Below, piece after piece: positions 15,266 to 48,407 of a stretch of DNA of 64,000 nt; positions within the stretch are counted from its first letter, which is position 1; the number at the start of each line of letters is the position of its first letter. The DNA comes from Deltaproteobacteria bacterium (lineage in GTDB: Bacteria > Bacillota > Clostridia > Acetivibrionales > UBA4821): NCBI GenBank assembly GCA_050258375.1, contig JBLMYQ010000051.1, positions 23,719 through 87,718 on the forward strand, written 5' to 3'. The notes under the pieces were generated by a model, which was given only the letters and a program-made list of their open reading frames with translations, had not been told where the DNA came from and did not search any database. A program made the position numbers and the translations under genes.

Positions 15266-15447
15266 AAGACCCCTCTATCTCCCCTTTAAAAGGGGACGAA
15301 AAGCTTGTATCTGAAGGGATATAGGAATGAATAATAATGACTTGAAGAAAAGAGAATTAATTGAAAAAAAGATAAATGAAGCTTGTATTGGATTTTCTGT
15401 ATAGAGCTACTTTTCGCTCCCTTTTGAAGGGAGGAAAGGAGGGTCTT
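15266..15447. mobile_element. REPIN/MITE-like element, type B (inverted hairpin ends)
   Basis: Left end AAGACCCCTCTATCTCCCCTTTAAAAGGGGACGAAAAG; right end reverse-complemented AAGACCCTCCTTTCCTCCCTTCAAAAGGGAGCGAAAAG. Confidence 0.7.
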
Positions 15448-15501
15448 TTTATACCATATATGGTTACATACAGAGAATATCGCCCGCCATCATCACTTTA
15501 A

Positions 15502-15530
15502 TTGACGCTATGTTAAAATTATGGTAATCT
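15502..15530 (+). promoter_or_regulatory. Putative sigma-A promoter of the MBOAT operon
   Basis: TTGACG-N17-TAATCT with extended -10 TG. Confidence 0.45.
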
Positions 15531-15623
15531 TGATTAAGGTTTCTACTATTATAATGCAGCAGTTTTGAATTGATTATAAATGTAAATCTAATAAAATTGG
15601 CAGATAAATATGGAGGGTCTGGG

Positions 15624-17138
15624 TTGCTATTTAATTCTATATCTTTTTTGATTTTTTTTCCAATTGTTACTATATTATATTTTTTTATTCCGCATAAATA
15701 CAGGTGGTTTTTATTACTGACAGCAAGCTGTATTTTTTATATGACTTTCATTCCAATATATATACTAATATTAGCAGTCACAATATTAATTGACTATTTT
15801 GCAGGCATACTTATAGAGAAAGAAGCAGGTAAAAAGAAAAAACTTTATCTTATTATCAGCATTCTTTCTACCTGTCTTGTTTTATTCATTTTCAAATATT
15901 TTAATTTCTTTAATGCAAATATGCAAAAGCTTGCTGAATTTTTACACTGGAATTATTCAATAGGCTCTTTATCTCTTATACTTCCTATAGGGCTTTCGTT
16001 TCATACTTTCCAAAGCTTAAGCTATGTTATAGAAGTTTACCGGGGAAATCAAAAAGCAGAAAAGAATTTCGGAATTTACGCATTATATGTTATGTTCTAC
16101 CCTCAGCTTGTTGCAGGACCTATCGAAAGACCGCAAAATCTTCTGCATCAATTTTATGAAGAGCATTATTTTGATTATAAAAGGGTTACCGATGGGCTTA
16201 AGCTTATGGCCTGGGGTATGTTTAAAAAGGTTGTAGTGGCTGACAGACTTGCAGTATATGTAGATATTGTTTATAAAAACCCTTCAGCCTTTGACGGCAT
16301 ATCCTTAATCATTGCTACTATTTTCTTTGCTTTCCAGATATACGCTGATTTTTCAGGCTATTCAGATGTTGCTATTGGCTCAGCTCAGGTCATGGGCTTC
16401 AAACTGATGACAAACTTCAACAGACCATATTATTCAAAATCAATATCCGAGTTCTGGAAAAGATGGCATATCTCCCTGTCAACCTGGTTCAGGGATTATC
16501 TTTACATTCCTCTTGGAGGCAACAGAGTAGCAAAATGGAGATGGCAGCTAAACCTCTTTATCGTATTTCTAGTTAGTGGATTGTGGCATGGAGCAAATTG
16601 GACCTATGTAATTTGGGGAGCACTTCATGGTTTCTATCTTGTATTTTCAATATGGACCCAAAAAATCAGAGACTTTATGGTGAATATTTTCAAGCTCAAG
16701 AAAGTGCCTGCCGTACATAAATTTATTCAAGTAGCAATAACTTTTTCTCTTGTATGCTTTGCCTGGATATTCTTCAGGGCAACAAGCATATCAAGTGCCA
16801 TGTATATAGTTACACACCTACACGTAAATTTAGCAAACGATTTGGCAGCCTTTGCGCATTCAATATACCTCAGCTTTCAGTCGGGAAAAATGCTAGTCGA
16901 TTTCACCCCAATCACAGGTCAACTATTATGGCTGCAAACAGAAATGACTTTTAAGATAGCCGTGATTTCGATTATTGCAATGGAGACAATACATTTTATA
17001 CAAAGAAGAGGAAGCATACGTAATAGAATATCCCAATTACCTGCTGTAGTGAGATGGAGCGGATACTTCCTTCTGATGTTCAGCATATGGATGTTTGGTT
17101 ATTTTTCTAACCAGAATTTTATATATTTCCAGTTTTAA
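15624..17138 (+). CDS. MBOAT O-acyltransferase (AlgI/PatA/DltB family)
   Basis: PIGLSFHTFQ, FYPQLVAGPIER, DFSGYSD, FWKRWHISLSTWFRDY, LWHGA; TTG start after GGAGG. Confidence 0.95.
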   Translation: MLFNSISFLIFFPIVTILYFFIPHKYRWFLLLTASCIFYMTFIPIYILILAVTILIDYFAGILIEKEAGKKKKLYLIISILSTCLVLFIFKYFNFFNANMQKLAEFLHWNYSIGSLSLILPIGLSFHTFQSLSYVIEVYRGNQKAEKNFGIYALYVMFYPQLVAGPIERPQNLLHQFYEEHYFDYKRVTDGLKLMAWGMFKKVVVADRLAVYVDIVYKNPSAFDGISLIIATIFFAFQIYADFSGYSDVAIGSAQVMGFKLMTNFNRPYYSKSISEFWKRWHISLSTWFRDYLYIPLGGNRVAKWRWQLNLFIVFLVSGLWHGANWTYVIWGALHGFYLVFSIWTQKIRDFMVNIFKLKKVPAVHKFIQVAITFSLVCFAWIFFRATSISSAMYIVTHLHVNLANDLAAFAHSIYLSFQSGKMLVDFTPITGQLLWLQTEMTFKIAVISIIAMETIHFIQRRGSIRNRISQLPAVVRWSGYFLLMFSIWMFGYFSNQNFIYFQF

Positions 17139-17158
17139 CAAAGGGAGCGAAATTATAC

Positions 17159-18259
17159 ATGCAGAGAAAATCAGTAATAGAATTTGTATTGAAGGTATTA
17201 TTATTATCGTTAAGTCTGCCAATTGTTGTTTTTATAAATTACACTGTTGATCCTCTTCAGTTTTATAGAAAGATGACAATAATGAAGCCAATTCTCTATG
17301 ACCAGGAACGCTATCAGAATCCGGGACTTGCTAAAAATTATCCATATGATACGGTAATCATCGGAACTTCAATGACTGAAAATATTTCTCCCAAATATAT
17401 AAAGCAGAAAATGGGTTTGAATTGCATAAAGCTGCCCATCGCAGGTTCAACCATAAAAGAACAGAATATGATTTTAAATGTAGCTGTAAAAACCGGAAAA
17501 GTAAAGAATGCCATATGGGGTCTTGACTTTTCCAGCTTCAAAGGCACTCCCGGCACTGTGAGAGACGAAGATGTAGCCTTTCCGTACTTTCTTTATGATG
17601 ATGACCTGTTAAATGATTATAAATATCTGGTTAATTGCAATACAACCGAACAGCTTATCAATATCCTGCAAGCCAACCTCACACACAAACAACTTGATAT
17701 AAATCAAATGCTTGAAAACTATAGGCGGTGGGATATTAACTGCACATTCAGTAAAAAGAATGCAATAAATGGATATAAAGATATAGTAAAAAATATAACT
17801 AAAGAAAAAAGAATAGGTTTTGAGTGGAATAATTTAAAGAAAAACATTGATAATAATTTTATCAGCATGGTGAAAAGCCATCCTGAAGTGAAATTTTATG
17901 TGTTTTTTACTCCTTCCTCCATACTAGCCCATAAATACTTTAATGAATTATCACCAGATATTTTTGAGAACGAGCTTAAATCCAAAAAGTATATCGTCAA
18001 GCAGTGTGAAGCCCTTAAAAACGTAAAAATATATGATTTTCAGAGTACAAAAGAAATTATTTTCAATCTTGATTATTATACAGATCAGTCACACCACAAT
18101 AATAAAGTAAATAAAATAATAATTGATTCTCTAGCAGAAGGGAAGAATGTTGTCACAAATAAAAACATTGACCATAATCTGATGCTTTTAAAAAGCTGGG
18201 TTAAAAATCTTAAAGTAGGCAATAACGATATTAGGCTTATTGATTCAACAATACATTAG
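17159..18259 (+). CDS. Membrane-anchored SGNH-like acyltransferase partner (DltD/AlgJ/PatB-like)
   Basis: N-terminal TM helix, IIGTSM serine motif, C-terminal DQSH (DxxH), directly after the MBOAT gene. Confidence 0.75.
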   Translation: MQRKSVIEFVLKVLLLSLSLPIVVFINYTVDPLQFYRKMTIMKPILYDQERYQNPGLAKNYPYDTVIIGTSMTENISPKYIKQKMGLNCIKLPIAGSTIKEQNMILNVAVKTGKVKNAIWGLDFSSFKGTPGTVRDEDVAFPYFLYDDDLLNDYKYLVNCNTTEQLINILQANLTHKQLDINQMLENYRRWDINCTFSKKNAINGYKDIVKNITKEKRIGFEWNNLKKNIDNNFISMVKSHPEVKFYVFFTPSSILAHKYFNELSPDIFENELKSKKYIVKQCEALKNVKIYDFQSTKEIIFNLDYYTDQSHHNNKVNKIIIDSLAEGKNVVTNKNIDHNLMLLKSWVKNLKVGNNDIRLIDSTIH

Positions 18260-18265
18260 TTATTA

Positions 18266-18294
18266 AAGTGGTGGGTATAAAATACCCACCACTT
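18266..18294. terminator. Hairpin between convergent genes
   Basis: AAGTGGTGGGTAT-aaa-ATACCCACCACTT. Confidence 0.75.
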
Positions 18295-18323
18295 CATATT
18301 TAGAGAACCAGCTTTAAAGGAAG

Positions 18324-18986
18324 CTATTGTGCCTTATATTCAATAATTTTATTTAATGCTTCAATTATTCCGTTAAGCTTATCTATTCTGGTTTTTTGGA
18401 CTTCAAGTACATTGTTAAGTCCATTTTTCATTTTTTCACTGTCTTTATTCTTTTTTGCCATAGCCATATCCAGGCATTCCTCTTTAACCTTTCCAGTTGT
18501 TTCAGCTATTTCAACCCTGTCGTCCCTAAGCTGTGCAAGTAAATCCTTAAGTTCATCAACTGTTTCTTGAGTGAGGTTCTCTTTATCCTTTACTATTTCT
18601 TTGATTCTTGCTTTTGCCTTGGTATGAAGGTCTTTGATTTTAATTTTCAAACCTTTTATTGTTTCTCTATTTGCTTTTATTTGGTCTTTAATTGCTTTGA
18701 AATCAGCCTTTAATGCATCTTTTTTAGCTTTAGCTTCTTGTTTCTGTACCTTAATAGCTTCTTTCGCTTCAACTCTTTTAGCCTTTTCAGCTTGTTTTTG
18801 AATCCGAGATGCTTTCTTATCTTTTTCTTTGGCAACAGGAGCTGAATCTTCATCTGCTACTGGCGTGCTGCTAACCACTGCATCTGTAGAAGTATTTGCT
18901 GATGCTTGTGTTTCAGTCTCTGCAAATACTGCAGCTGAGCTGATTAATATGCAAAATGTTATAATAATCGATAATAATTTTTTCAT
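18324..18986 (-). CDS. Secreted Lys/Glu-rich coiled-coil protein
   Basis: Signal peptide ending VFA; charged helical body. Confidence 0.75.
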   Translation of the reverse strand: MKKLLSIIITFCILISSAAVFAETETQASANTSTDAVVSSTPVADEDSAPVAKEKDKKASRIQKQAEKAKRVEAKEAIKVQKQEAKAKKDALKADFKAIKDQIKANRETIKGLKIKIKDLHTKAKARIKEIVKDKENLTQETVDELKDLLAQLRDDRVEIAETTGKVKEECLDMAMAKKNKDSEKMKNGLNNVLEVQKTRIDKLNGIIEALNKIIEYKAQ

Positions 18987-19014
18987 AGTAATTAATCTCC
19001 TTTCATTATTTGAA

Positions 19015-19434
19015 CTATTCTGCTAAATCTGTATCGCTCACTTCATCTAGCTTTTCAACATCTTTTAACATTACACTGATTTCACTATCAAGATCTTTAA
19101 GTACCTTTTCCTTTTCTGCACTGGATACTGCATTGTCAGATTTGGTTATTACGCTTATGTTATTCTGTTTTGTTGGAGCCTTTTCTCCTTTTGGAAGCTT
19201 GTTCCCGCTGACTGTCGACTTGTCTGCGAGGTTTCCATCAGATGTTTTAGCATCCGGATTTGTTTTAAGCTCTTCAGCTTTTTCAGGTGAAGCCGGCTGA
19301 TTTGCCACCTGATTTTGAAGTGATTCAGGTTTTACGGCTGATTTGCTTCCTTCGGTATTATTTACTGCGCCTCCGCAGGCTGTAAGGGTAACTGTTAATA
19401 TTAACAATAAAGTAGGTAAAAATAATTTTTTCAT
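19015..19434 (-). CDS. Lipoprotein of unknown function
   Basis: Lipobox LTAC; RBS GAGGAGG. Confidence 0.8.
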   Translation of the reverse strand: MKKLFLPTLLLILTVTLTACGGAVNNTEGSKSAVKPESLQNQVANQPASPEKAEELKTNPDAKTSDGNLADKSTVSGNKLPKGEKAPTKQNNISVITKSDNAVSSAEKEKVLKDLDSEISVMLKDVEKLDEVSDTDLAE

Positions 19435-19520
19435 TTTATTCCTCCTCATATTTTGTTTTCTGTTTCGCACCCTATATTCTTATATTAGCCCCTGATTGTG
19501 AACTAAAATTAGGGTAATTG

Positions 19521-19709
19521 TAAAAAAAGTGTAAACATATTTTATCTTTCGAGTAAATTCTGACAGTCAAATGCATTTCGGTAACTTTTTTTGAAATGCC
19601 TTGCCGGAAATATTTTTTAAAGGAATAAACTTATATTTCCTGGCATTATAAAAAAAGTGTAAACATATTTTATCTTTTGGGTAAATTCTGATAGTCAAAT
19701 ACATTTCGG
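19521..19709. repeat. Two 61-bp direct repeats (19521-19581, 19649-19709)
   Basis: TAAAAAAAGTGTAAACATATTTTATCTTT...CATTTCGG; 4 mismatches by eye. Confidence 0.9.
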
Positions 19710-19716
19710 AATACAT

Positions 19717-19758
19717 TTCGTTCCTCCCTATTGAAGGGGGGAAGATAGTTGGGGAGTC
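19717..19758 (-). repeat. Single REP-like hairpin (type B-like) containing the kinase stop codon
   Basis: Minus strand GACTCCCCAACTATCTTCCCCCCTTCAATAGGGAGGAACGAA resembles the ends at 15266 and 48283. Confidence 0.55.
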
Positions 19759-21155
19759 GGAATTGTTAGATAAAAGGAAGTTCCTTCTCCTCTTTTACTT
19801 TCTACCCAAATCTTGCCTCCATGAAGCTCCACTAGGCTTTTAGCAATATTAAGCCCTAATCCGGTTCCTCCATCGTTTTGTCTTGTTCTGTCTCCCCTAT
19901 AAAACTTATCAAACACATGCGCTAAATCTTCTTCCGGAATTCCCTGTCCATTATCTCTCACAGCAAATTTTATAAAATCATCTTCTTGTTTTACCGAAAT
20001 TCTGACTTGAGAACCCTCTCCCGAATACTTGACTGCATTTGTTATCAGATTTGAGAGAATCTGTTTAAGCCTGTCCGAATCTGCCTTAACATAAAATTCG
20101 ACAGGACATTCAGAAACTATTTGAACCTGTTTTTGATGTGCTGTTATTTCCAAGCTTCTTATAATTTCATTTATTACATCAACCGTTTTTACGTCAACAA
20201 TATTTAGTTTGATTGCTCCACCCTGAATCTTTGCAATTTCAAGAATATCTCCGGTAAGCTTTATAAGCCGGTTAATCTCTTCTTTCATAATTGCTAAATA
20301 TTTGGGATAATTTTCGGGCTTAATAAGACCGTCAATCATTCCCTGTACGAAGCCATTAATTGAAGTCAAGGGAGTTCTAAGGTCATGAGAAACATTTGCA
20401 ATAAATTCACGCCTAACATTTTCAGTAATCTCAAGCTGTTTATTCATTGTATTAAAAGCATCAGCCAGCTTTTCAATCTCATCACTGGTTTTCGCTTTGA
20501 TTTCTTCAACCTTTTCTCCTCCTGCAAGCTTCATAGCTGCATCGGTCATTTGTACAATCGGTCTTGAAATTCTTCGTGAAATAAAATAGATTATGCCTGC
20601 ACTGATTATTGCAAGAATCAGTGCACATATCCAGATTATCAGGTTAATCTTTTTTATATCAGCCTCCATTACATTAACAGGAGAAAAAATCAATATAGCC
20701 CCTGAAATCTGATTCCTATTTTTCAGAGGATAACCTGTAAAGACTACATCCATATTAAACTTTGAAGAATATTGAGTTTTACGGAAAACAGTTTTGCCCT
20801 CAAGAATCTGTTCCAGGTCATTAAGCAGAAAAGCTTCATCCAACCCTTCTCCGATGTTGATGCTTTTTTTATCTTTTATTGCATCTACATTTGCATTTAT
20901 AACATAAATACTTGAATCAGTAACATAACCAATAGAATTTATTGATGAATCAAGCTCCTGCTTATTAAGCAATCCGCTAAGATAACTTTCAGCCAACCTC
21001 CCAACTTTTTTTGCAGATTTTAATTGTTCTTGTTCCTTATCGGTAAAGATATAATCCGAATAGCCGATAGAAAGTGCTATAGACGCAGTCAATATGACCG
21101 CAGTAATAATCATCAGATATGTGAACATTAACCGTGAGAAAATATTTTTAAACAT
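19728..21155 (-). CDS. Sensor histidine kinase (HAMP-HisKA-HATPase)
   Basis: ANVSHDLRTPLT, NLITNAVKYS, DNGQGI, GTGLGL. Confidence 0.95.
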   Translation of the reverse strand: MFKNIFSRLMFTYLMIITAVILTASIALSIGYSDYIFTDKEQEQLKSAKKVGRLAESYLSGLLNKQELDSSINSIGYVTDSSIYVINANVDAIKDKKSINIGEGLDEAFLLNDLEQILEGKTVFRKTQYSSKFNMDVVFTGYPLKNRNQISGAILIFSPVNVMEADIKKINLIIWICALILAIISAGIIYFISRRISRPIVQMTDAAMKLAGGEKVEEIKAKTSDEIEKLADAFNTMNKQLEITENVRREFIANVSHDLRTPLTSINGFVQGMIDGLIKPENYPKYLAIMKEEINRLIKLTGDILEIAKIQGGAIKLNIVDVKTVDVINEIIRSLEITAHQKQVQIVSECPVEFYVKADSDRLKQILSNLITNAVKYSGEGSQVRISVKQEDDFIKFAVRDNGQGIPEEDLAHVFDKFYRGDRTRQNDGGTGLGLNIAKSLVELHGGKIWVESKRGEGTSFYLTIPTPQLSSPLQ

Positions 21156-23005: not shown

Positions 23006-23043
23006 TAGTATAGGCACCTCACTTCTAAAGTCACCAAGAATTA

Positions 23044-29912: not shown

Positions 29913-29953
29913 TATTTCTCCTCTATTTCAAGAGAGGGAGCTAGGGGGTAATT
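29913..29953 (-). repeat. Single REP-like hairpin, type A, containing the dapF stop
   Basis: Minus strand AATTACCCCC-TAG-CTCCCTCTCTTGAAATAGAGGAGAAATA. Confidence 0.75.
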
Positions 29954-30944: not shown

Positions 30945-32708
30945 CTAGTTGTGGTGTCCGCTATTAATAAATTTACTTGCCATCTCACCAGCCATCTCAA
31001 TATAACGTTTTATTTTATTGGTTGTAGTTTTCTTAAATTCTTCTTCTCTTATATTATATTCTCTAATATGTTTATAAAGGGGAATTCTTTTGTTTACAAC
31101 CCTAACTTCTTTATCTATCAGTGATTTTATAAGTCCGTCAGAAACTTCATCCCCAAATTTTTCATTAATATATTCCTTATTAATTACTATAGTAGCACAA
31201 ACAACTGTATCACCATCATTGTCAGGCTTTCCGAAAATCATGGACTCTTTGATCAATGGACTGCGATTTATAATTATCTCTAATTCTTCAGGAAATATAT
31301 TCTTGCCATTTTTAGTAACTATCAAATCTTTCTTTCTACCCGTAATATGAAGGAATCCTTTTCTGTCAAAATAACCAAGGTCACCGGTATAAAACCAACC
31401 GTCCTTTATAACCTCAGCTGTTGCCTCAGGGTTTTCATAGTAACCAAGCATTAAATTAGGACCCTTTGCTAAAATCTCTCCATATTTATTACCGCTATCT
31501 TTTTCTATTTTGATTTCATTGCTTGGCATTGGAAGTCCTGCTGCAGAATCCTTAAAGTATTTATCCATATTCAATGCAATTATTGGAGAACATTCGGTTA
31601 AGCCATAACCCTGTATAAAGTGAATTCCAAAATCGCGAAACCCTTTTGCGACACGTGGGTCAAGAGCTGCTGCTCCGCTTATTATAAGCCTTAGCTTACC
31701 GCCAAAGGTTTCATGCAAATCTTTAAAAATTTTCCTTGATATATCTATACCAAAAAACTTTAATAGATTACTTACTAATAAAGCAATTTTCATTTTGGTA
31801 ACCAATCCGGGCCTTTTTGAAGACTGTTCCCATATTTTTCTGTACATAGTTTCGACTATTAGTGGAACTGAAAGCATTATTGTAGCTTTTGATTCCTTCA
31901 AGTTTTTTGCTATATGCCTTAAGCCTTCGCAGTAAGCAATTGTCAAACCTTTAGCCAAAGGTGTAAGAAAACCGCAGCTGCATTCATATGTATGATTCAG
32001 CGGCAGAAAGGACAAAACCGTATCATTCGAATCAAAATAAAGCATTTTTGTCATATCCATTATGTTTGTACAAATATTTTTATGTGAAAGCATTACAGCC
32101 TTTGCTGCAGCAGTAGTACCTGACGTAAAAAGCATTATACTCATAGCTTCATTGTCAATTTCCGCATTGATAAATCTATCATCACCATCTGCCAATAGCT
32201 TTTTACCTTCAGAAATAAGCTCCTGAAATGTATGGAAGGTTTTCTCTCCCTCTTTTGAATCCATACAAACCATAATCTTTATATCTTCATTCTTTTCTAC
32301 AACTTTTGTTATTACATGCTCATATTTACCTGAAAAAATAATAGCATTTGCTTCTGACCTTTTAATAAGACTTTCTATCTCATTTTCCGGAAGCTCCTTA
32401 TCAAGTGGAACAGAAATACCGACGCCGTTAACTACTGCCAGATATGAAACAGCCCATTCATACCTGTTTTCCCCTATTATTACTATCCTTTTTCCTTTTA
32501 AGCCCAAATTAATAAGCACTGTCCCCAAAGCATCCACGTCATGCTTCAATTGGGAATAAAGAATCGGAACATACTCATGGCTTTCTTTATCTTTAACAAG
32601 AAAAGCAGATTTCGAAGCATAATCATTACAGCTGGAATTAAGCATTTCTTTTAAATTATTAATTTTTACTGATTGATAAAATGGTTTGTACTTCGTATTG
32701 ACTCCCAT
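30945..32708 (-). CDS. Long-chain acyl-CoA synthetase-like AMP-binding enzyme
   Basis: FTSGTT, QGYGLTECSP, YTGDLG, GRKKDLI, KTTTNKIKR. Confidence 0.92.
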   Translation of the reverse strand: MGVNTKYKPFYQSVKINNLKEMLNSSCNDYASKSAFLVKDKESHEYVPILYSQLKHDVDALGTVLINLGLKGKRIVIIGENRYEWAVSYLAVVNGVGISVPLDKELPENEIESLIKRSEANAIIFSGKYEHVITKVVEKNEDIKIMVCMDSKEGEKTFHTFQELISEGKKLLADGDDRFINAEIDNEAMSIMLFTSGTTAAAKAVMLSHKNICTNIMDMTKMLYFDSNDTVLSFLPLNHTYECSCGFLTPLAKGLTIAYCEGLRHIAKNLKESKATIMLSVPLIVETMYRKIWEQSSKRPGLVTKMKIALLVSNLLKFFGIDISRKIFKDLHETFGGKLRLIISGAAALDPRVAKGFRDFGIHFIQGYGLTECSPIIALNMDKYFKDSAAGLPMPSNEIKIEKDSGNKYGEILAKGPNLMLGYYENPEATAEVIKDGWFYTGDLGYFDRKGFLHITGRKKDLIVTKNGKNIFPEELEIIINRSPLIKESMIFGKPDNDGDTVVCATIVINKEYINEKFGDEVSDGLIKSLIDKEVRVVNKRIPLYKHIREYNIREEEFKKTTTNKIKRYIEMAGEMASKFINSGHHN

Positions 32709-32823
32709 AAAATATCCTCTCTGACTTCAATATCATTGGACATAATCTACTAATGCATTAACTCTTTTATACAGTATATATTTTAATTTGTAAAATAATA
32801 ATTTTATAGTAAATACAATAATA

Positions 32824-34551
32824 TTATTTCGAGGTTTCCAAATACCTTTTTATTTTTTTCGTTGTTGTCTTTTGGAATTCCTCTTCTCTTATACTGTATT
32901 GCTTAATGTGCTTATACGGCAAGATCGAATGATTGATTTTCTTGATTTCTTCGCCAACAATAAAGTTAACCATTTCTTCCGTAAGAGAATCTCCGCATTT
33001 TTCTTCAAGATATTCCCTGTTAATTACAATTTCGGCACATACCAAGGTATCTCCATCTTCATCCGGCTTCCCATAGACCATGGACTCCTTGACAAACAAT
33101 GCTCTGTTTATAAGGGTTTCCAGTTCTTCCGGATATATATTTTTACCATTTTTCGTTACTATCAGGTATTTTTTTCTTCCTGTTATATATATAAAGCCAT
33201 TTTTATCAATGTATCCCAAATCTCCAGTATAATACCATCCATCTTTCAATACATTATTAGTAGCCTCTTCATTATTGTAGTACCCAATCATTATATTCGG
33301 ACCTCTTACAACGATTTCCCCTATTCCCTCATCATTCTTATCTTCAATTTTCACCTCAACATTTGGCGTAGGAAGACCAGCCGAAGCATCTTTACTATAC
33401 CCCACCATATTAACTGCTACAAGCGGTGAACACTCAGTCAGCCCATACCCCTGAATCGCTAATATCCCAAATTCGCGATAGCCTTTTGATACTGCGGGGT
33501 CAATTGCAGCCGCACCGCTGATTAATAGTGACATGCTGCCTCCCATCATGTCGTGAATAGGCTTAAAAAGTCTTTTTCTTATATCAATACCAAACATTAA
33601 AAGAAAATTACTTAAAGCAATTGCAATTTTAAGCTTCCTCATTTTACCCGGTTCTTTTGCCGCTTGCTCCCATATTCTTTTGTAAATATTTTCAGCAATC
33701 AATGGCACCGTCAGCATAATCGTCGCTTTTGACTGCTGAAGATTCTTGACTATGTGCCTTAATCCCTGACAAAAAGCTATTGTTGAGCCGGAATATATTT
33801 GCAGCAGGAAGCCTCCTGTACATTCATAGGTATGGTGTATCGGAAGTACAGATAGCAAGACATCTTTCTCTGTAAACAACACCATGCTTCCCATATCCAT
33901 TATGTTTGAAGAGATATTTCTATGTGATAGCATTACTGCTTTTGAAGAATCTGTTGTCCCTGAAGTAAAAAGCATCATTCCCATTTCTTCTGAATCTATT
34001 ACAGCATCAACATAGTCTTTTATGCCTTCTTCTATAAGCTTTTCGCCCTCTTTGACAAGCTTTTTATAGGAGTAGAAGTTATCCTTATCATCTTCTAAGT
34101 CCATAGAAATATATTTTTTTACTGAATCAACTTTTTGAATGATATTGTCAAAGACAGCCTGCAGCTTGCCTGAAAAAATTACTGCTTCAGCCTCAGACCT
34201 TATAAGGAGGTTTTCTATTTCATTCTCCGGCAGTTCCTTGTCAATAGGAACAATTACTCCCACACCATTTACCACAGCCAAATATGTAACTGCCCACTCG
34301 TATCTGTTTTCTCCTATCACGGCAACCCTTTTCCCTTTTAAACCGCTTTGTAATAAAGCTGTCCCTAATGAATTAACATCTTTACCATATTGGCTGTAAG
34401 ATACAGGCATATAATTTTCGATTTCCTGTGAATAAACAAGGAAGGCTGGCTTTTCCCCAAAAATAGTACAACTTTGCACCAGCATCTCTTTAAGATTTGA
34501 GATTGGTCTTACTTTATTAAGTGGCTTCTTATACAACTTTAAATTATTCAT
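32824..34551 (-). CDS. Long-chain acyl-CoA synthetase-like AMP-binding enzyme (tandem paralog)
   Basis: FTSGTT, QGYGLTECSP, YTGDLG, KTTTKKIKR. Confidence 0.92.
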   Translation of the reverse strand: MNNLKLYKKPLNKVRPISNLKEMLVQSCTIFGEKPAFLVYSQEIENYMPVSYSQYGKDVNSLGTALLQSGLKGKRVAVIGENRYEWAVTYLAVVNGVGVIVPIDKELPENEIENLLIRSEAEAVIFSGKLQAVFDNIIQKVDSVKKYISMDLEDDKDNFYSYKKLVKEGEKLIEEGIKDYVDAVIDSEEMGMMLFTSGTTDSSKAVMLSHRNISSNIMDMGSMVLFTEKDVLLSVLPIHHTYECTGGFLLQIYSGSTIAFCQGLRHIVKNLQQSKATIMLTVPLIAENIYKRIWEQAAKEPGKMRKLKIAIALSNFLLMFGIDIRKRLFKPIHDMMGGSMSLLISGAAAIDPAVSKGYREFGILAIQGYGLTECSPLVAVNMVGYSKDASAGLPTPNVEVKIEDKNDEGIGEIVVRGPNIMIGYYNNEEATNNVLKDGWYYTGDLGYIDKNGFIYITGRKKYLIVTKNGKNIYPEELETLINRALFVKESMVYGKPDEDGDTLVCAEIVINREYLEEKCGDSLTEEMVNFIVGEEIKKINHSILPYKHIKQYSIREEEFQKTTTKKIKRYLETSK

Positions 34552-34739: not shown

Positions 34740-34773
34740 TATTATGTCCAAAATATTACTAAGGAGGAAAGCT

Positions 34774-35133
34774 ATGAAATGTCCTGTATGTGATGTTGAG
34801 ATGAAGCATGCCTCAATTAAAAATGTTGAAATTGATTACTGTGAGCAATGTCAAGGATTTTGGTGCGATAAGGATGAGCTTGAAAAAGTCGCAATGCTTG
34901 GCAAAGACTATCTGGCAAGTTCTCCAATATCCAAAAGCATTGAGGAGGGTATTCAAAGCACTAATAAGCCAAACAAATCCTTACTCCTTTGTCCAAGCTG
35001 TAACGCAAGCCTCGTAAAATTTAATTATTCATATGAAAGTGATATCTTTTTGGAAACTTGCAAGATATGCAACGGAATTTGGGTAGATGATGGTGAATTA
35101 GGAGATATTATTGATTATATTTATAGTGAATAA
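34774..35133 (+). CDS. zf-TFIIB-type zinc-ribbon protein, two domains
   Basis: CPVC...IDYCEQCQGFWCDKDEL and CPSC...CKICNGIWVDDGEL; RBS AAGGAGG. Confidence 0.85.
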   Translation: MKCPVCDVEMKHASIKNVEIDYCEQCQGFWCDKDELEKVAMLGKDYLASSPISKSIEEGIQSTNKPNKSLLLCPSCNASLVKFNYSYESDIFLETCKICNGIWVDDGELGDIIDYIYSE

Positions 35134-35159
35134 TAATAATCAGTATATGGAGGTGCCAA

Positions 35160-35669
35160 ATGAAGTGTCCAAAATGTAATTCCAGTCTTAAAACAGCAGA
35201 AATCGAGAATATATCTGTAGAAATATGTCCATCATGTGATGGTTTATGGTTAGATAAAATTGAGTTAGCAAAAATAGTTGATTTTGATTTTAATTTACTA
35301 AAAAAATCAGAAATAGCTTCCACACTAGATAAAGATAAACAAATAGATGTAACAGAAAATAAAATAATAAAATGTCCAAATTGCAGCTCTCAAATGATAA
35401 GTACCAACAGTTTATTTAACGCTGATACTAATATTGACATATGTCCAGCATGCAATGGGACATGGCTGGATGATGGCGAATTAAAAGAAGTAATAAATTA
35501 TATGAAGAAAAATTCAGGCTCCCTTTCAGATGAGCAAATAAATAAAATAAAATTAAAGCTCCAACATTCTCAGGAAGCACTTCATAAATCAGGAATAATT
35601 GGTCTTATGGAATCTTATTTTATATCTATAAAGAAGCTTGTTCATCATAAAGATTACGATGCATTTTAA
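35160..35669 (+). CDS. zf-TFIIB-type zinc-ribbon protein, two domains (paralog)
   Basis: CPKC...CPSCDGLWLDKIEL and CPNC...CPACNGTWLDDGEL. Confidence 0.85.
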   Translation: MKCPKCNSSLKTAEIENISVEICPSCDGLWLDKIELAKIVDFDFNLLKKSEIASTLDKDKQIDVTENKIIKCPNCSSQMISTNSLFNADTNIDICPACNGTWLDDGELKEVINYMKKNSGSLSDEQINKIKLKLQHSQEALHKSGIIGLMESYFISIKKLVHHKDYDAF

Positions 35670-42650: not shown

Positions 42651-44150
42651 ATGGAATACATTAGTACCAGAGGATACAAAAATCATATAACTGCCTCATC
42701 TGCAATTGTTTCAGGAATTGCTCCTGATGGTGGTTTATTCGTTCCCAGATGCATTCCGGTATTATCACAAAATGAAATAATAGGATTATACAAAAAGAAC
42801 TTTCAGGATATTGCTTTTTTTATAATTAAGAAGTTTATACCTGATATTGAAAATGAAGATTTAAAAAAATGCATATCACAAGCATATAATTCCAAAAGCT
42901 TTGATAATCCTTTGATTTGTCCTTTAAGACCCCTTACTGATTCCATTTTAATGCTTGAGTTATGGCATGGACCTACCTGCGCTTTTAAAGATATAGCACT
43001 TCAGCTTCTTCCGAGATTACTTACTGTATCTGCTAAAAACCTTGGAGACGAAAGCACTTTTGTAATACTTGCTGCAACCTCAGGCGATACAGGCAAAGCT
43101 GCACTTGAAGGCTTTAAGGATGTACCTAAAACAAAAGTTGTGGTGTTTTTCCCTCAGGACGGTGTAAGTGATATCCAAAAAAGCCAGATGGTTACTCAAG
43201 AGGGTAACAATGTACATGTCATTGGCGTTAATGGGAATTTCGACCATGCGCAGAGCGGTGTTAAAGAAATTTTTGCAGATAAAGAGCTTTTAAATACCCT
43301 AGCTGCAAAAAACATGAAGCTTTCATCGGCAAATTCAATTAATTGGGGAAGACTTCTGCCGCAAATAGTATATTATTTTTCTTCGTATATGGCTCTATTA
43401 AAATCATCGCATATAAAATTTGGTGATAAAATAAATGTATGCATACCAACCGGAAATTTTGGCAATATAATGGCTGGTTATTATGCCAAAAAAATGGGCT
43501 TGCCAATAAACAAGCTGATAATCGCAACAAATCAAAACGATGTGCTTGCCAGATTTGTTAAAACAGGAGTATACGATGCAAGCAAGGATTTAAAAACAAC
43601 CATCTCGCCATCAATGGATATACTGGTTTCAAGTAATCTTGAAAGATTATTATTTGAAGCTTCAGGACATGATTCAGAAAAAGTTTTAGAGCTTATGAAC
43701 AGCCTTAAACAAAACCGCAGCTATAAGGTTGATAAAGAAATATTTTCTTTTATAAGAGAAGATTTTTATGCAGATTACGCAACAGAAAAGAGCACTTTAA
43801 AATCCATAAAGAATGTGTTCAGGAATTATAAATATGTTGTTGACCCACATACAGCAGTAGGGCTGCATGTTTACAACAAATATGTAAAAAAGACCGAAGA
43901 CCATACGCTTACTATTATTGCAAGCACTGCTAGTCCTTACAAATTTAACCGCAGTGTAATTAATGCCCTTAATAAAAAAGCTCAATCTTTTGAGAACAAG
44001 GATGAATTTGAACTGCTTAATATTCTTTCAGCCACAACTAAAACCTTGGTTCCAAAGCCTTTAAAACATTTAGCTTCAAAACCGGTTTTGCATAATACAG
44101 TTTGCGAAAAGGATGAAATGAAAAAGGTATTAGAAAAAATATTAGAATAA
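42651..44150 (+). CDS. thrC: Threonine synthase
   Basis: YISTRG, ELWHGPTCAFKD, ATSGDTG, SANSINWGR, PTGNFGN. Confidence 0.97.
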   Translation: MEYISTRGYKNHITASSAIVSGIAPDGGLFVPRCIPVLSQNEIIGLYKKNFQDIAFFIIKKFIPDIENEDLKKCISQAYNSKSFDNPLICPLRPLTDSILMLELWHGPTCAFKDIALQLLPRLLTVSAKNLGDESTFVILAATSGDTGKAALEGFKDVPKTKVVVFFPQDGVSDIQKSQMVTQEGNNVHVIGVNGNFDHAQSGVKEIFADKELLNTLAAKNMKLSSANSINWGRLLPQIVYYFSSYMALLKSSHIKFGDKINVCIPTGNFGNIMAGYYAKKMGLPINKLIIATNQNDVLARFVKTGVYDASKDLKTTISPSMDILVSSNLERLLFEASGHDSEKVLELMNSLKQNRSYKVDKEIFSFIREDFYADYATEKSTLKSIKNVFRNYKYVVDPHTAVGLHVYNKYVKKTEDHTLTIIASTASPYKFNRSVINALNKKAQSFENKDEFELLNILSATTKTLVPKPLKHLASKPVLHNTVCEKDEMKKVLEKILE

Positions 44151-44192
44151 AAATACCGGCAGCTGCAATTGCAGCTGCCGGTATTTTTATTC
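44145..44192. terminator. 48-bp perfect palindrome, bidirectional terminator of thrC and trpA
   Basis: GAATAAAAATACCGGCAGCTGCAA|TTGCAGCTGCCGGTATTTTTATTC. Confidence 0.9.
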
Positions 44193-44981
44193 ATCCAATG
44201 CCTTCCTCAATTCCTCTACTAATCTTCTTACACCTTCAATTGCTTTATTTATCGCGTCTACCTCTTCGATTTTTTTCACAATCGCACTTCCAACAATAAC
44301 ACCTTCACTGAATTCCTTTATGCTTCTCACCTGCTCCGGCGTAGAAATACCAAATCCGACAGCCCTGGGTATATCTGTATAGCTATGTATTTCTTTAACA
44401 AATTCAGCAAGATTTTTATGAAATTCTTCTCTTACACCTGTTACACCCAAAGAAGAAACGCAGTAAACAAATCCTTTTGCGTCTTTTGCTATTCTTTTCA
44501 TTCTCTCTTTTGAGGTTGGTGCAATTAAGGTTATAACATTTATACCAAATTCCTGTGCTGTAGAATTTATCTCTTCCTTCTCTTCAAAAGGCAGGTCCGG
44601 AACTATTACTCCATCAACTCCTGTTTCCTCACATTTTTTGAAGAAATCATCCAATCCATATTTAAATATGCAATTAAAATATATTAGTAAAATCAGTGGT
44701 ATCTCTGTTTTTTCCCTTGCTCTACTTACAACAGCAAAAACATCCTCAATTTTCATACCGTTTTTTAATGCGCGTTCAGATGCAGCCTGAATAACCGGTC
44801 CTTCAGCAAGCGGGTCTGAAAAAGGAACACCTAATTCAATTATATCCGCTCCTGCATTCTCCATAGCTTCAATAAGCTCAATAGTCGCTTCCAGACTAGG
44901 GTCTCCAGCAGTTACAAAGGTTATTAGTGCTTTCTTCCCTTTCTCATTTAATGTTTTAAATTTATCATCAATTCTATTCAT
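44187..44981 (-). CDS. trpA: Tryptophan synthase alpha chain
   Basis: ELGVPFSDPLAEGPVIQ, VPDLP, GVTG, GFGIS. Confidence 0.98.
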   Translation of the reverse strand: MNRIDDKFKTLNEKGKKALITFVTAGDPSLEATIELIEAMENAGADIIELGVPFSDPLAEGPVIQAASERALKNGMKIEDVFAVVSRAREKTEIPLILLIYFNCIFKYGLDDFFKKCEETGVDGVIVPDLPFEEKEEINSTAQEFGINVITLIAPTSKERMKRIAKDAKGFVYCVSSLGVTGVREEFHKNLAEFVKEIHSYTDIPRAVGFGISTPEQVRSIKEFSEGVIVGSAIVKKIEEVDAINKAIEGVRRLVEELRKALDE

Positions 44982-44998
44982 ATAATCACTCCTCCTAT

Positions 44999-45133
44999 AA
45001 CTTACCCCTAGCCCCTCTCTTTTTAAAAGAGGGGAACTAGCTTTTATTTTATTATAATTTGAAAAATTATCTCTCCCTGAATATCTAGTTTTTCCCTCTG
45101 TTTTATAAGAGAGGGAAGCTAGAAGGGTGAGTT
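44999..45133. mobile_element. REPIN-like doublet, type A, between trpB and trpA
   Basis: Left end AACTTACCCCTAGCCCCTCTCTTTTTAAAAGAGGGGAACTAG; right end reverse-complemented AACTCACCCTTCTAGCTTCCCTCTCTTATAAAACAGAGGGAAAAACTAG. Confidence 0.75.
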
Positions 45134-46306
45134 CATATACTTAGCAATAGACGTTACATCCTTATCTCCTCTTCCTGAAATATTTATTACAACAATCCGG
45201 CTTTTTTGCATATCAGGAATAATCTTTAAAGCATATGCAACTGCATGCGCGCTCTCAATTGCAGGTATTATTCCTTCAATTCTTGTAAGATATTTAAAGG
45301 CTTCAACCGCTTGGTCATCAGTTATAGGATAGTATTCTGCCCTATTTTTTTTAAAAAGATTAGCATGCTCAGGTCCTATACCGGGATAATCCAGACCGGC
45401 AGAGATTGAATGAACAGGCATTATCTGCCCTTCTTCATTTTGTAGGAAATATGATTTCATTCCATGGAAAACCCCGATACTTCCTTTAGTTAGTGTCGCA
45501 GCATGTTTTTCTGTTTCAATCCCTAATCCAGCCGCTTCAACACCAATCAGTCTGACATTTTTATCTTCAATAAACGGATAGAACAAACCCATAGCATTAC
45601 TTCCACCGCCAACGCAAGCTATCAGAACATCGGGAAGCCGTCCTTCAACCTGCATCATTTCTTTTTTTACTTCATCTCCAATTATTCTCTGAAAGTCGCG
45701 TACGATTGTCGGGTAAGGATGCGGTCCCATTACTGAGCCAAGAACATAAAACGTATCCTCGACGCTCCCTGCCCAGCTTCTCATGGCTTCACTTGTTGCA
45801 TCTTTTAAGGTGCCGGTTCCTGCTTTGACCGGAATAACCTCCGCGCCTAGAAGCCTCATCCTGAAAACATTCAACGCTTGCCTTTCAATATCTTCAATTC
45901 CCATAAAAACTTTGCATTCCATGTCAAAAAGTGCTGCAGCCGTAGCTGTTGCGACTCCATGCTGACCAGCGCCCGTTTCAGCAATAACCCTTTTCTTTCC
46001 CATTCTTTTAGCTAATAAAGCCTGGCCAAGAACATTATTTATTTTATGTGAGCCTGTATGGTTCAAATCCTCTCTTTTAAGATAAACCTTAGCTCCTCCC
46101 AGCTCTTTTGTCATTCTTTCGGCAAAGTACAAGGGCGATGGTCTTCCGGCATAATTTTTAAGATAATACTGATATTCCTTAATAAATTCCGGGTCATTAA
46201 TATACCTTACATGAGCTTCTTCAAGCTCTGCCAATGCATTCATCAATGTTTCAGGCACATACTGCCCTCCAAAATCCCCAAATCTTCCCCTCTTTACATT
46301 TTCCAT
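45119..46306 (-). CDS. trpB: Tryptophan synthase beta chain
   Basis: [38 protein letters not shown]. Confidence 0.98.
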
Positions 46307-46399
46307 ATTTATCTCCTCCCTTTAATTAATAACAAATGCCAGTTAACTCTTCCATCTATCCAATGACTATTGCCCATAAATAATTGGACGAAGTCGTTT

Positions 46400-46441
46400 T
46401 ATCTCCCCTCTATTTTAAGAGAGGGGTTAGGGGTGAGTTAA
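46400..46441 (-). repeat. REP-like hairpin, type A, containing the trpC stop (degenerate partner near 46343-46361)
   Basis: Minus strand TTAACTCACCCC-TAA-CCCCTCTCTTAAAATAGAGGGGAGATA. Confidence 0.8.
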
Positions 46442-47209
46442 TTCCTTCAATTTCTCCTTGGGTGAATCAGCCTTCATGAGCACCTCTCCAACCAGCACAG
46501 CGTCAACTCCCAAACCCTTGAGATATTCCATATCACTTCTTGTTTTTATCCCGCTTTCACTAACAACTATTCGGCTTTTAGGTATCATTCCAATCAATCT
46601 TTCTGTTGTATCAAGCTTTACTTCAAATGTTTTTAAGTTCCTGTTATTAATACCAATTATTTCAGCATTTGTTTCCAATGCCCGTTTTAATTCCTCTTCA
46701 TCATGAACTTCAATAATACAAGCCATTCCAAGGATTTTTGAAACTATCTGGAATGTCTTTAATTCATCATCTGAAAGTATTGAAACAATCAAGAGTATTG
46801 CATCTGCACCAGCCATTCTTGACTGATAAATCTGCCTTAAATCGATTATAAAATCTTTTCTCAATATAGGAAGTGGAATCCTCTGCCTGACCTTTATCAA
46901 ATTATTTATGCTTCCTTTGAAGTAATGCTCTTCTGTAAGAACAGAAATCATATCAGCTCCACCTTCAAAATATTCCTTGCCCATCAAGGGAGGATCAACA
47001 GATTCCATAATAATTCCCTTTGAAGGTGATGCAGGCTTTATTTCAGCAATTACTGCCAGACCATCACTTTTTTTGAGTACCCTTGTAACATCTAAGGCAG
47101 GACTAACCTTAGACCTTAATAACTTTTGCTTCATGGTTTCACTTGAAATGCTGCCAAATTCTTCTTGTATGGTTTTTCTCTTTCTTCCGACAATTTCGTC
47201 CAGTATCAT
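46427..47209 (-). CDS. trpC: Indole-3-glycerol phosphate synthase
   Basis: IAEIKPASPSKG, SVLTE, LRKDFI, GINNRNL, SESG. Confidence 0.97.
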   Translation of the reverse strand: MILDEIVGRKRKTIQEEFGSISSETMKQKLLRSKVSPALDVTRVLKKSDGLAVIAEIKPASPSKGIIMESVDPPLMGKEYFEGGADMISVLTEEHYFKGSINNLIKVRQRIPLPILRKDFIIDLRQIYQSRMAGADAILLIVSILSDDELKTFQIVSKILGMACIIEVHDEEELKRALETNAEIIGINNRNLKTFEVKLDTTERLIGMIPKSRIVVSESGIKTRSDMEYLKGLGVDAVLVGEVLMKADSPKEKLKELTHP

Positions 47210-48228
47210 AATTCCACTCTCCTTGTGTACTCTACAAACTCTTCCAGCTTTCTCGCCGCCTTACCTGAATCAATAATATCATTGGCAAGGATTACCCCTT
47301 CATAAATATCTTTAGCTTTATTTCCAATATACAATGCTGCTGCGCTGTTTAATATAATCGCATCCCTTGCTGCCCCTTTTTTCCGTCCGTTCAATATCTC
47401 CTTTATAATCAAAGCATTTTCAGCCTTTTCCCCGCCTCGCAGCTCCTCAACGCTTGACTTTTTAATACCAAAATCATCCGGCGTCAGCGTGTAATTTATA
47501 ATTTCCCCTTCATTTATTTGGGTAATAAAGGTAGAACCGCTGACAGTAATTTCGTCCAATCCGTCACTTCCGTGAACAATCATAGCTCTTTGGGTTCCTA
47601 ATCTCAAAAGAACCTCTGCCATAGTATCTGCAAGTTCCTTTTTAAATACTCCGATAAGCTGACCCGAAGCATTAGCAGGATTGGTTAAAGGACCTAAAAT
47701 ATTGAATACAGTTCTAATTCCAAGCTCTTTTCTTGCTCCGCCGACATTTTTCATAGATTTATGGAAATTAGGTGCGAACATAAAGCCTATTCCAATTTCC
47801 TCTATGCACTTTTCAACTTCAGCAGGCTGTAAATCAATAATTATTCCAAGCTCTTCAAGCACGTCAGCACTTCCGCATTTACTCGAAACTGACCTGTTTC
47901 CATGTTTTGCAACCGGAATCCCTGCTGCCGAAACAACAAACGCTGCCCCTGTAGAAATATTGATGGTATGTGCGCAATCTCCACCTGTTCCACATGTATC
48001 AACTGAGAAATCAACCTTTGGGTAAATGCATTCAGCTTTTTTTCTCATGGTTTTTACAAACCCTGTTATTTCTTCAACCGTTTCACCCTTCATTCTTAAT
48101 GCTGTAAGAAAGCTTCCGATTTGTGCCTGCGCAGCACTTCCATCCATTATTATATCCATAGCCTGCTCTGCTTCATTTTCTGTAAGATTTACTCTCTCAA
48201 CCACTTTTGCAATAAATGCTTTCAACAT
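47206..48228 (-). CDS. trpD: Anthranilate phosphoribosyltransferase
   Basis: DTCGTGGD, KHGNRSVSSKCGSADVLE, GLDE. Confidence 0.97.
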   Translation of the reverse strand: MLKAFIAKVVERVNLTENEAEQAMDIIMDGSAAQAQIGSFLTALRMKGETVEEITGFVKTMRKKAECIYPKVDFSVDTCGTGGDCAHTINISTGAAFVVSAAGIPVAKHGNRSVSSKCGSADVLEELGIIIDLQPAEVEKCIEEIGIGFMFAPNFHKSMKNVGGARKELGIRTVFNILGPLTNPANASGQLIGVFKKELADTMAEVLLRLGTQRAMIVHGSDGLDEITVSGSTFITQINEGEIINYTLTPDDFGIKKSSVEELRGGEKAENALIIKEILNGRKKGAARDAIILNSAAALYIGNKAKDIYEGVILANDIIDSGKAARKLEEFVEYTRRVEL

Positions 48229-48282
48229 ATCCCTCACTCCCTTTAAATTTAAAATTTATTCAACTTGCTAATGTTAAATTCA

Positions 48283-48407
48283 GACCTCCCTATCCCTCCT
48301 AAAAGGAGGCGAACAGCAACTTTTGCAAAAACGTATTTATCGTCTTTCATAAAGATTACTTTCAGAATCCTACTAATCGCTCCCTTTTCAGGGAGGATAG
48401 GAGGGTC
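48283..48407. mobile_element. REPIN-like doublet, type B, between trpG and trpD
   Basis: Left end GACCTCCCTATCCCTCCTAAAAGGAGGCGAA; right end reverse-complemented GACCCTCCTATCCTCCCTGAAAAGGGAGCGAT. Confidence 0.75.

Follow-up and report, generated by a model that had tools for sequence, protein, structure and literature searches.

Hairpin repeats of the window

Which enzyme, if any, spreads the short, partly inverted hairpin repeats that lie between positions 15266 and 48407 of the 64,000-nt stretch analysed here (the window)? A sequence-only reading had sorted them into two families, type A and type B, likened them to REPINs and proposed that, with no transposase in the window, a nuclease encoded elsewhere acts on them in trans, RAYT and DUF559 proteins being the candidates. 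All nine ends were recovered within a few bases of where it had placed them (Table 1), its three stem variants (TCCCCT/AGGGGA, CTCCCT/AGGGAG and CCTCCT/AGGAGG) pair as described, and a Pfam scan of 26 window and locus proteins (window ORFs n=79) detected no transposase. Some assignments had to be revised. The copy at 29913 is present but degenerate (hairpin z = -0.46; missed by the relaxed detector), the end at 45133 does belong to the A family but represents a second end subtype of it, and the copy at 19717 is not type B, resembling instead the ends of another DUF559 cassette (L009, in a family relative). A T-box was the sole Rfam match in the window, and the repeat family was not among the largest hits of a generic repeat finder.

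Table 1. Repeat ends and associated gene remnant located in the window
Feature	Positions	Strand	Basis
Internally deleted DUF559 cassette with conserved outer flanks (~70 nt left, ~40 nt right)	15197..15485	+	Two-block alignment to intact cassette L300; flanks common to other copies
B2 end, cassette left end: mirror tail, 5-nt linker, 6-bp stem	15268..15297	+	Also found immediately before DUF559 ORFs on contigs C14 and C11
In-frame DUF559 gene remnant of 25 codons, start fused to end, ~109 codons lost	15327..15404	+	Translation; alignment to L300
B1 end, cassette right end, inverted relative to B2	15416..15445	-	Also follows DUF559 3′ halves on C67 and C35
Single end of a third subtype; codes the last ~10 codons and stop of a histidine kinase; absent from same-genus relative G001	19712..19762	-	
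Degenerate type-A end giving dapF its stop codon	29912..29952	-	
Type-A end forming the left arm of an inverted pair (135 nt) that lies between trpB and trpA; not present in G001	44999..45034	+	
Second A-family end subtype; codes the last four residues and stop of trpB	45091..45133	-	Same subtype is the upstream end of A-family cassette L021 in G001
Single type-A end between trpC and trpB; codes the last residues and stop of trpC; absent from G001	46405..46440	-	
B3 end forming the left arm of a B3/B1 pair (123 nt) that lies between trpG and trpD; not present in G001	48283..48310	+	
B1 end overlapping the trpG stop codon	48379..48407	-	

Repeat ends with a predicted triplex fold

The ends had been described as a hairpin with a C-rich tail, which is correct yet incomplete, as the tail mirrors the purine arm. 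Among hairpins found without using the tail, tail and arm were mirror images in 39 of 46, 27 of 30 and 11 of 11. In other taxa, 201 hairpins were compared: the mirror orientation prevailed over the direct one in 60 and the direct one in 2, with 12 ties and 127 showing neither. Moreover, the tail changes together with the purine arm, i.e. three strands covary. A Watson-Crick hairpin with an antiparallel mirror third strand (G:G, A:A or T) is the design of the BoxC/PIT/TM triplex repeats, and as in that class, the ends are dispersed, intergenic (many overlap gene ends) and partly arranged as inverted pairs of two different subtypes. Thus, judged by their design, the window repeats are of the BoxC/PIT/TMECO class and predicted to form an intrastrand triplex; the folding tool covers hairpins only, the three-stranded fold being a prediction from sequence. 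B ends comprise six triplets and a 5-nt linker, and A ends differ in the tail. The exact TMECO consensus (nine triplets, 3-nt second loop) was not matched, placing the repeats in the same class but not in TMECO itself.

Copies were also counted genome-wide, as the earlier reading had suggested. A family-independent scan for a tail plus hairpin gave 130 ends in the source genome (G000; 2.40 Mb, draft), as against four in the complemented and none in the locally shuffled sequence. A relaxed triplex scan of contigs of at least 60 kb gave 93 ends versus two on shuffled contigs. At three sites, ends are nested within the hairpin loops of other ends. Of 38 B pairs, 37 join two different end subtypes, just as a cassette with distinct left and right ends predicts.

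Paired B ends enclose a DUF559 gene

The spacers between paired ends had been considered unrelated, which does not hold for the first pair (15268–15445). Its alignment with the intact cassette L300 falls into two blocks, one of 171 nt at 86% and one of 121 nt at 93%, and the spacer of this pair is a DUF559 gene of the Vsr/EDxHD fold carrying an in-frame deletion of ~327 nt. A search for the gene flanked by such ends led to DUF559 (PF04480), at least two near-intact copies of which lie between the same ends on other contigs of the source genome. Two ORFs begin ~60 nt past a B2 end and run off the contig ends, and two matching 3′ halves stop ~30 nt before a B1 end. These copies, at least two in number, share 95% amino-acid identity, the two differing by one silent and six replacement changes. 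Near-identical cassettes occupy unrelated loci, intact versions were found in metagenomes (L300 and L301), and five of the 38 B pairs are deletion derivatives. By these alignments, the 15268–15445 pair is the deletion remnant of a cassette composed of an end, a stand-alone DUF559 gene and a different, inverted end. The idea of gene-less pairs with a partner gene elsewhere in the genome is supported, with DUF559 as the candidate; membership of the REPIN-RAYT class is not.

The stand-alone DUF559 protein scored 102 bits against PF04480 (cut-off 20.6) and 62 against the YcjD equivalog model, below its cut-off of 218. Its structure model (pLDDT 92) is a single domain of 134 aa, whose nearest folds are 3HRL (E 4e-14) and the catalytic domain of I-Bth0305I. 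The invariant residues D66, D79 and H83 correspond to D196, N208 and H213 in the alignment (the last offset by one residue), and the near-invariant D92 corresponds to D222. A Vsr-like catalytic domain with its active-site residues, as in EDxHD homing endonucleases, is thus recognisable in the model, and from the fold and the conserved residues we infer nuclease activity. The dN/dS ratio between DUF559 lineages is ~0.3. The protein departs from a homing endonuclease in the strict sense: it has no N-terminal DNA-binding region, and its gene is intergenic at unrelated loci rather than part of an intron or intein at one homing site.

Linkage of DUF559 genes and triplex ends

The linkage of gene and ends crosses phylum borders. 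With a strict detector, triplex ends were found at 29 of 73 sites near DUF559 and at 6 of 59 far from it. With a relaxed detector, chosen like the 60-bit cut after the data had been seen, ends lay beside 47 of 53 DUF559 relatives and in 3 of 53 distant stretches, and a fresh metagenome set gave 57 of 62 versus 1 of 30. In one of the DUF559 locus sets, about half of the loci are from related Anaerolineales. Ends accompanied 18 of 22 strong stand-alone hits, 0 of 21 fused domains and 1 of 20 weak small hits; at many loci only one side of the gene carries an end. The more distant viral homologues are mostly devoid of ends (present in 2 of 75).

The type-A pattern reached at least seven matches in only 5 of 41 genomes, four of which carry one DUF559 clade (support 100/96) flanked by type-A ends. 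By this co-occurrence, type A tracks its own DUF559 clade, i.e. the ends are clade-specific. The source genome has 43 type-A ends, and tblastn with nine relatives as queries retrieved no DUF559 gene or remnant of the type-A clade from its assembly. Type-A cassettes of three genomes are situated directly between conserved operon genes and have no visible outer repeats. Searches of the open-access literature listed no statement on the pairing of gene and repeats.

How ends and cassettes may spread

Our preferred reading, which we consider reasonably probable, is that the window repeats are BoxC-class ends of a minimal DUF559 cassette, that DUF559 likely cuts there and that host repair copies ends or cassettes to new sites. 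The protein would recognise the triplex in single-stranded DNA and cut at or beside the folded ends. Repair of the break by the host would then place copies of ends or entire cassettes at new sites, which amounts to copy-in and not cut-and-paste, and on gene-less pairs DUF559 would act in trans. Weighing against this reading are the type-A ends of G000, whose assembly yielded no gene of their clade, the many loci with a one-sided end and the want of a uniform target duplication.

The cassette might, on the other hand, be real but moved only by IS-derived MITEs and ordinary recombination, DUF559 having another task, for instance in repairing or resolving folded DNA, with the ends serving as its substrate or as expression signals. 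We regard this as a serious though rather unlikely alternative. It is consistent with the 21 B2/B1 pairs (100-nt pairs) that lie inside an outer element of ~191 nt with CAGGG-type ends, where direct repeats of 9–12 nt occur in six of nine measurable copies as against 5.6% in controls. CAGGG-type ends together with a direct repeat of ~10 nt make up the ISAs1 pattern (compare ISArsp11 in PMC6305408). An ordinary transposase probably multiplied these 21 pairs within an ISAs1-like outer MITE, which constitutes a second cause of copy number. Intact B cassettes also have common outer inverted repeats, 631 nt apart in L300, and one filled E. coli allele extends ~40–45 nt beyond each BoxC end. As the largest B family and the multi-copy intact cassettes sit in larger elements with outer inverted repeats of their own, their spread need not involve DUF559. 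Evidence against a passenger role comes from the type-A cassettes without visible outer repeats, from 11 B3/B1 pairs that have no common flanks and from end sequences that follow the nuclease clade. Furthermore, no target duplication was seen at the outer repeat of the intact cassettes, and neither G000 nor the same-genus relative G001, both draft assemblies, contains a PF13808 or PF01609 transposase; another genome, G003, has one, with a similar right end.

A fixed-length target duplication just outside the triplex-bounded unit, as expected of an IS or MITE, was absent from pairs, singles (0 of 33 single A ends) and the E. coli hrpB-mrcB site. At the latter, filled and empty alleles differ by a replacement beginning inside the stop codon, a junction reminiscent of repair. 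Offset direct repeats of at least 10 nt, likewise repair-like, were present at 3 of 13 un-nested pairs, compared with 0.6–0.8% in controls. An IS630-like TA duplication was rejected for type A, since the base preceding the end varies.

Position of the repeats at gene ends

Empty and filled sites were compared as the sequence-only reading had proposed. All four resolvable window sites are empty in G001, the other two of the six (15266 and 29913) being not placeable, and G001 is too diverged (72–82%) for junctions to be resolved there. The location of the ends at operon junctions raises the question of whether they have been retained for a role as terminators, mRNA stabilisers or translation signals, the DUF559 link reflecting origin only. 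We find this improbable. In its favour, the upstream gene takes its stop codon from the repeat at 25 of 31 sense-oriented type-A ends, several ends in reverse orientation adjoin a start codon behind a tract resembling a Shine-Dalgarno sequence, the 11 B3/B1 pairs are all oriented the same way relative to transcription, and three elements reside within the trp operon. However, a tolerated selfish insert would likewise need to supply a stop codon, the orthologous junctions in G001 are devoid of ends, RNA cannot form purine-motif triplexes, and BoxC showed no promoter or terminator activity (summarised in PMC4666352). The stop position was kept in 10 of 12 cases, which is not above the background of 48 of 72 and means only that ends sit at native stops; of the 28 genes that precede A ends, 6 lacked an ortholog in the part of G001 covered (2.08 Mb out of ~2.6 Mb).

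The proposal of REPIN pairs mobilised by a RAYT-type HUH nuclease is by now largely refuted and very improbable. Inverted pairs of short hairpins are indeed characteristic of REPIN-RAYT systems, and the genome contains one Y1_Tnp/REP-transposase-like gene. But this gene has two REP-like hairpins in its own ORF, is tied to a separate nine-copy GTAG REP family and has no triplex end within ~5 kb (C48:50–60 kb). Since the partner of the window repeats has no HUH/Y1 domain and the ends are of the triplex type and not simple palindromes, they do not belong to REP/REPINs. RAYT genes are single-copy, whereas the DUF559 gene that the ends enclose occurs in at least two near-identical copies. The clade specificity of the ends still recalls that of RAYTs and REPINs (PMC3337134). 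That DUF559 is an anti-phage or toxic nuclease which the ends protect or license is hardly credible: its patchy distribution would fit, as would weak and partial hits of two PADLOC models (E 5e-5 and 3e-4; ~60 residues), but these hits span the shared nuclease fold only, the neighbours looked at are housekeeping operons, and DUF559 has no partner gene.

Comparison with known systems

The DUF559 cassette bears on an old problem. The BoxC/PIT/TMECO repeats, known since the 1990s, are present in more than 260 genomes. Holder et al. (2015, PMC4666352) link them to genome instability but call the mechanism unclear; they found no mobility gene near the motifs, and their main text mentions neither ycjD nor a nuclease. 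All five of their E. coli pairs join different subtypes. BoxC-type repeats have also been described as a G-quadruplex-hairpin switch (PMC5100583). At the present locus, these long-unexplained repeats bound a DUF559 cassette on its left and right; both intact parents and deletion derivatives of it exist, and its ends are specific to the nuclease clade. Naming one small enzyme, which is also present beside a TMECO in E. coli K-12 (ycjD), makes the open BoxC question testable and, if true, would provide a function for DUF559, a common domain of unknown function. We tentatively extend this to a wider proposal, which may or may not hold in full: a minimal selfish element without DDE or HUH transposase, in which a Vsr/EDxHD-fold nuclease of ~130 aa recognises its own clade-specific triplex ends and cuts there, and repair copies ends or entire cassettes into the ends of genes, exactly at their stop codons. 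BoxC repeats and the genome instability linked to them across bacteria would then have their missing enzyme in DUF559/YcjD, which would also be a nuclease naturally specific for triplexes.

Among known systems, ISAs1-family MITEs share the CAGGG-type ends and ~10-nt direct repeats of the ~191-nt element, a likeness confined to the outer shell; the cognate transposase was not found in the G000 assembly. EDxHD homing endonucleases (I-Bth0305I, PDB 3R3P; PMC3239194) and Vsr have the same catalytic fold and aligned active-site residues. In contrast to them, DUF559 is a 134-aa protein with neither intron or intein nor N-terminal NUMOD DNA-binding region, its histidine is one residue closer, and it is found at many unrelated sites instead of one homing site. 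REPIN-RAYT systems (PMC3337134) also combine gene-less inverted pairs with a small nuclease gene between the same ends, and several cognate gene/repeat groups per genome. They differ from DUF559, which has a Vsr/EDxHD fold and no HUH/Y1 domain, triplex ends and several near-identical copies distributed patchily across families. E. coli YcjD (PF04480; PDB 3HRL) is of the same family, and its gene shows the same adjacency to triplex ends: ycjD adjoins TMECO 9, and two ycjD alleles end in a BoxC-encoded tail. Unlike in the cassettes, the ends lie on the 3′ side of ycjD only. The closest relatives are the BoxC/PIT/TMECO repeats themselves, with the same succession of pyrimidine arm, loop, purine arm, short linker and mirror third strand, the same intergenic location in inverted pairs of two subtypes and the same variability between strains. 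Compared with these, the ends described here are shorter and more A/T-rich (6–9 triplets), point their tails outward, often lie over stop codons and demonstrably bound a DUF559 cassette.

Results

The window covers C51:23719–87718 of a genome of 2.40 Mb in 82 contigs. Across this genome, a family-independent scan that required a C-rich tail and, after it, a pyrimidine/purine hairpin returned 130 ends, compared with 4 matches in complemented and none in locally shuffled sequence. The nine ends named in the sequence-only reading were all found again, and its expectation of further copies genome-wide was borne out. Rfam gave no match at the window end sites. In the window, the trp operon holds three elements; two others sit at gene ends, one at that of dapF and one at that of a histidine kinase gene. 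In these ends, the tail mirrors the purine arm. With B hairpins picked by stem and trailer alone, the expected mirror tail was present in 39/46 B1, 27/30 B2 and 11/11 B3 ends. Thus, all three strands change together; with only three subtypes, this amounts to two independent changes. Of 201 asymmetric hairpins next to DUF559 relatives from other taxa, 60 were better fitted by a mirror third strand and 2 by a direct one (12 ties, 127 neither). Judged by sequence, the design is that of the purine-motif intrastrand triplexes of the BoxC/PIT/TMECO class, as described in the accessible part of PMC4666352. There, all five E. coli pairs (5/5) combine two different subtypes. Among our 100 type-B ends, 76 are arranged as 38 inverted pairs (26 B1/B2, 11 B1/B3 and one B1/B1) and 24 are unpaired. 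The 26 B1/B2 pairs comprise 5 cassette remnants and 21 members of a short family, and B2 hairpin loops at three sites contain other ends.

We demonstrate here that the repeats serve as ends of DUF559 cassettes, in which a stand-alone DUF559 (PF04480) gene lies between an end and a different inverted end. The genome has five PF04480 matches. Two DUF559 ORFs start about 60 nt 3′ of a B2 end and are cut off by the contig end; at other contig ends lie two matching 3′ halves, each with an inverted B1 end behind it. This indicates at least two near-identical cassettes (95% amino-acid identity; 1 silent and 6 replacement changes between the two gene copies). Intact cassettes occur in metagenomes (L300, L301). 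The spacers between paired ends had been considered unrelated. This does not hold for the pair at 15268–15445, whose spacer is a DUF559 deletion remnant: the pair matches L300 in two segments (86% over 171 nt and 93% over 121 nt), lacks about 327 nt relative to it and keeps a 25-codon in-frame fusion of the DUF559 gene start to the end.

In a set of 73 relatives of the protein that spans many phyla and is about half related Anaerolineales, a strict triplex motif lay at most 250 nt from the gene in 29/73 cases versus 6/59 distant windows. A relaxed detector, set after the strict-motif misses had been viewed, placed ends at 47/53 loci with full flanks versus 3/53 distant windows, and in a fresh metagenome set at 57/62 versus 1/30. 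At many DUF559 loci only one side has an end, and the more distant viral homologues are mostly without (ends in 2/75). In 63 PF04480 hits, a subset of all hits divided by a 60-bit cut chosen after scores had been seen, ends accompanied 18/22 stand-alone hits of at least 60 bits, 1/20 weak small hits and 0/21 domains fused to large proteins. Counting overlapping matches in 41 genomes, the type-A pattern occurred 20 times in the genome under study, 12 times in its same-genus relative G001 and 10, 9 and 7 times in G013, G020 and G038; three of the remaining genomes had 1–2 matches, 33 had none and the control was zero. Each of G001, G013, G020 and G038 has a DUF559 gene flanked by type-A ends, and these genes form one clade (support 100/96), which was not found in the assembly under study. 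Two type-A cassettes (L013, L021) presumably lie between topoisomerase subunit genes and peptidoglycan ligase genes.

An 80-sequence alignment of the DUF559 protein has 12 invariant columns, among them D66, E77, D79, G80 and H83, and dN/dS is about 0.3 between lineages. The structure model (pLDDT 92) most resembles 3HRL and the catalytic domain of the homing endonuclease I-Bth0305I, followed by Vsr. D66, D79, H83 and D92 align with I-Bth0305I D196, N208, H213 (one residue off) and D222, residues taken from the accessible part of PMC3239194. The protein is thus a predicted nuclease, an activity we infer.

Comparison of empty and filled sites, proposed along with the idea of mobilised repeats, found all four window sites placeable in G001 empty there. 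Of 43 type-A ends, 31 sit after a co-oriented gene; 18 of these begin exactly at its TAA stop, and a further 7 provide the stop codon from a position 12–14 nt within the end. Twelve of the 18 have a G001 ortholog, with the stop at the same codon in 10/12 (background 48/72); in G001, 8 of these 12 sites are empty and 4 are occupied, two of them by the other end subtype. B3/B1 pairs take one orientation relative to transcription (11/11). Offset direct repeats of at least 10 nt were present at 3/13 un-nested pairs (controls 0.6% and 0.8%) and at 0/33 single type-A ends. Three E. coli BoxC pairs were compared. At hrpB-mrcB, the replacement begins inside the stop codon (net 102 nt, no duplication); fepB-entC alleles differ by 186 nt, of which about 40–45 nt lie past each end, with a duplication of at most 3 nt; alx-sstT has one collapsed pair and one unrelated allele. 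The junctions are more readily explained by repair-mediated replacement than by cut-and-paste.

In E. coli, about 170 nt separate ycjD from TMECO 9, and a second BoxC encodes the peptide in which two ycjD alleles terminate. The locus is present in 3346/5426 genomes; two genomes without it have an efflux operon at the site, and the fully read one of the two lacks any motif there. The fabI-sapF interval (L007, L179) occurs in two forms, one with ycjD and BoxC ends, the other with a TetR-RND-MFS efflux operon and no such ends.

Coordinates of repeat-associated and other features (C, contig of the genome under study; positions without prefix, window)
Feature	Location	Strand	Remarks
Ends of other subtypes nested in B2 loop	C41:11693-11878; C2:62975-63290; C53:31736-31900		two cases doubly nested
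~191-nt CAGGG-end MITE with B2/B1 triplex pair	21 sites, e.g. C48:3215-3408, C64:8014-8204		~10-nt direct repeats
Outer inverted repeat around B cassettes	L300:1055-1686; 15184-15485; L019		
Y1 TnpA-REP-like gene (L006)	C48:54609-55115		two REP-like hairpins inside own ORF
T-box leader of trp operon	50742-50991	minus	
23-nt exact direct repeat	50471-50622		copies separated by 129 nt, shortly downstream of the T-box leader; spacer resembles another hairpin repeat
128-nt tandem duplication	19517-19709		92% over 65 nt; adjoins 19717 end; not in G001
Perfect 56-nt palindrome	1206-1261		between two genes; 28-nt arms, no loop
Tandem paralogous AMP-binding (acyl-CoA synthetase-like) genes	30945-34551		two genes, 1840 nt apart
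Neighbouring small proteins	34744-35669		two, with repeated TFIIB-type zinc-ribbon domains

Discussion

Our best inference is that spread of the repeats is probably driven by the predicted DUF559 nuclease. A passenger model, which stands against nuclease-driven spread, appears rather unlikely. Outer elements form a second layer around B pairs and cassettes, so ordinary hitch-hiking probably accounts for part of the copy number. Most of the 21 short B2/B1 pairs are contained in a young element of about 191 nt with CAGGG-type outer repeats, which was not seen as such in the compared part of G001; 9–12-nt direct repeats flank 6/9 measurable copies versus 5.6% in cross-pair controls. Another outer repeat, without target duplication, is common to the intact B cassettes and the remnant in the window and also surrounds a different DUF559 cassette in a further genome (G003). 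A RAYT driver is rejected: the sole Y1 gene has its own REP-like hairpins and no triplex end nearby. Together with a separate 9-copy GTAG-tagged family (C19, C25, C34, C38, C48, C82) it is a small REP/RAYT-like system, by features in the accessible part of PMC3337134.

A full-text search of openly available articles found no statement of the pairing of DUF559 with triplex ends. A term search did not find ycjD in the accessible parts of PMC4666352 and PMC5100583, and that of PMC1189080 treats YcjD only as a Vsr-related family. In outer ends and direct repeats, the ~191-nt element resembles ISAs1 elements (PMC6305408, as far as accessible); an ISAs1-type transposase was not found in the draft assemblies of the studied genome or G001. 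According to the accessible part of PMC4666352, the motifs are markers of unstable loci, for which the mechanism is unclear, and no mobility gene was found in their vicinity. The repeats presented here are previously undescribed members of this known class.
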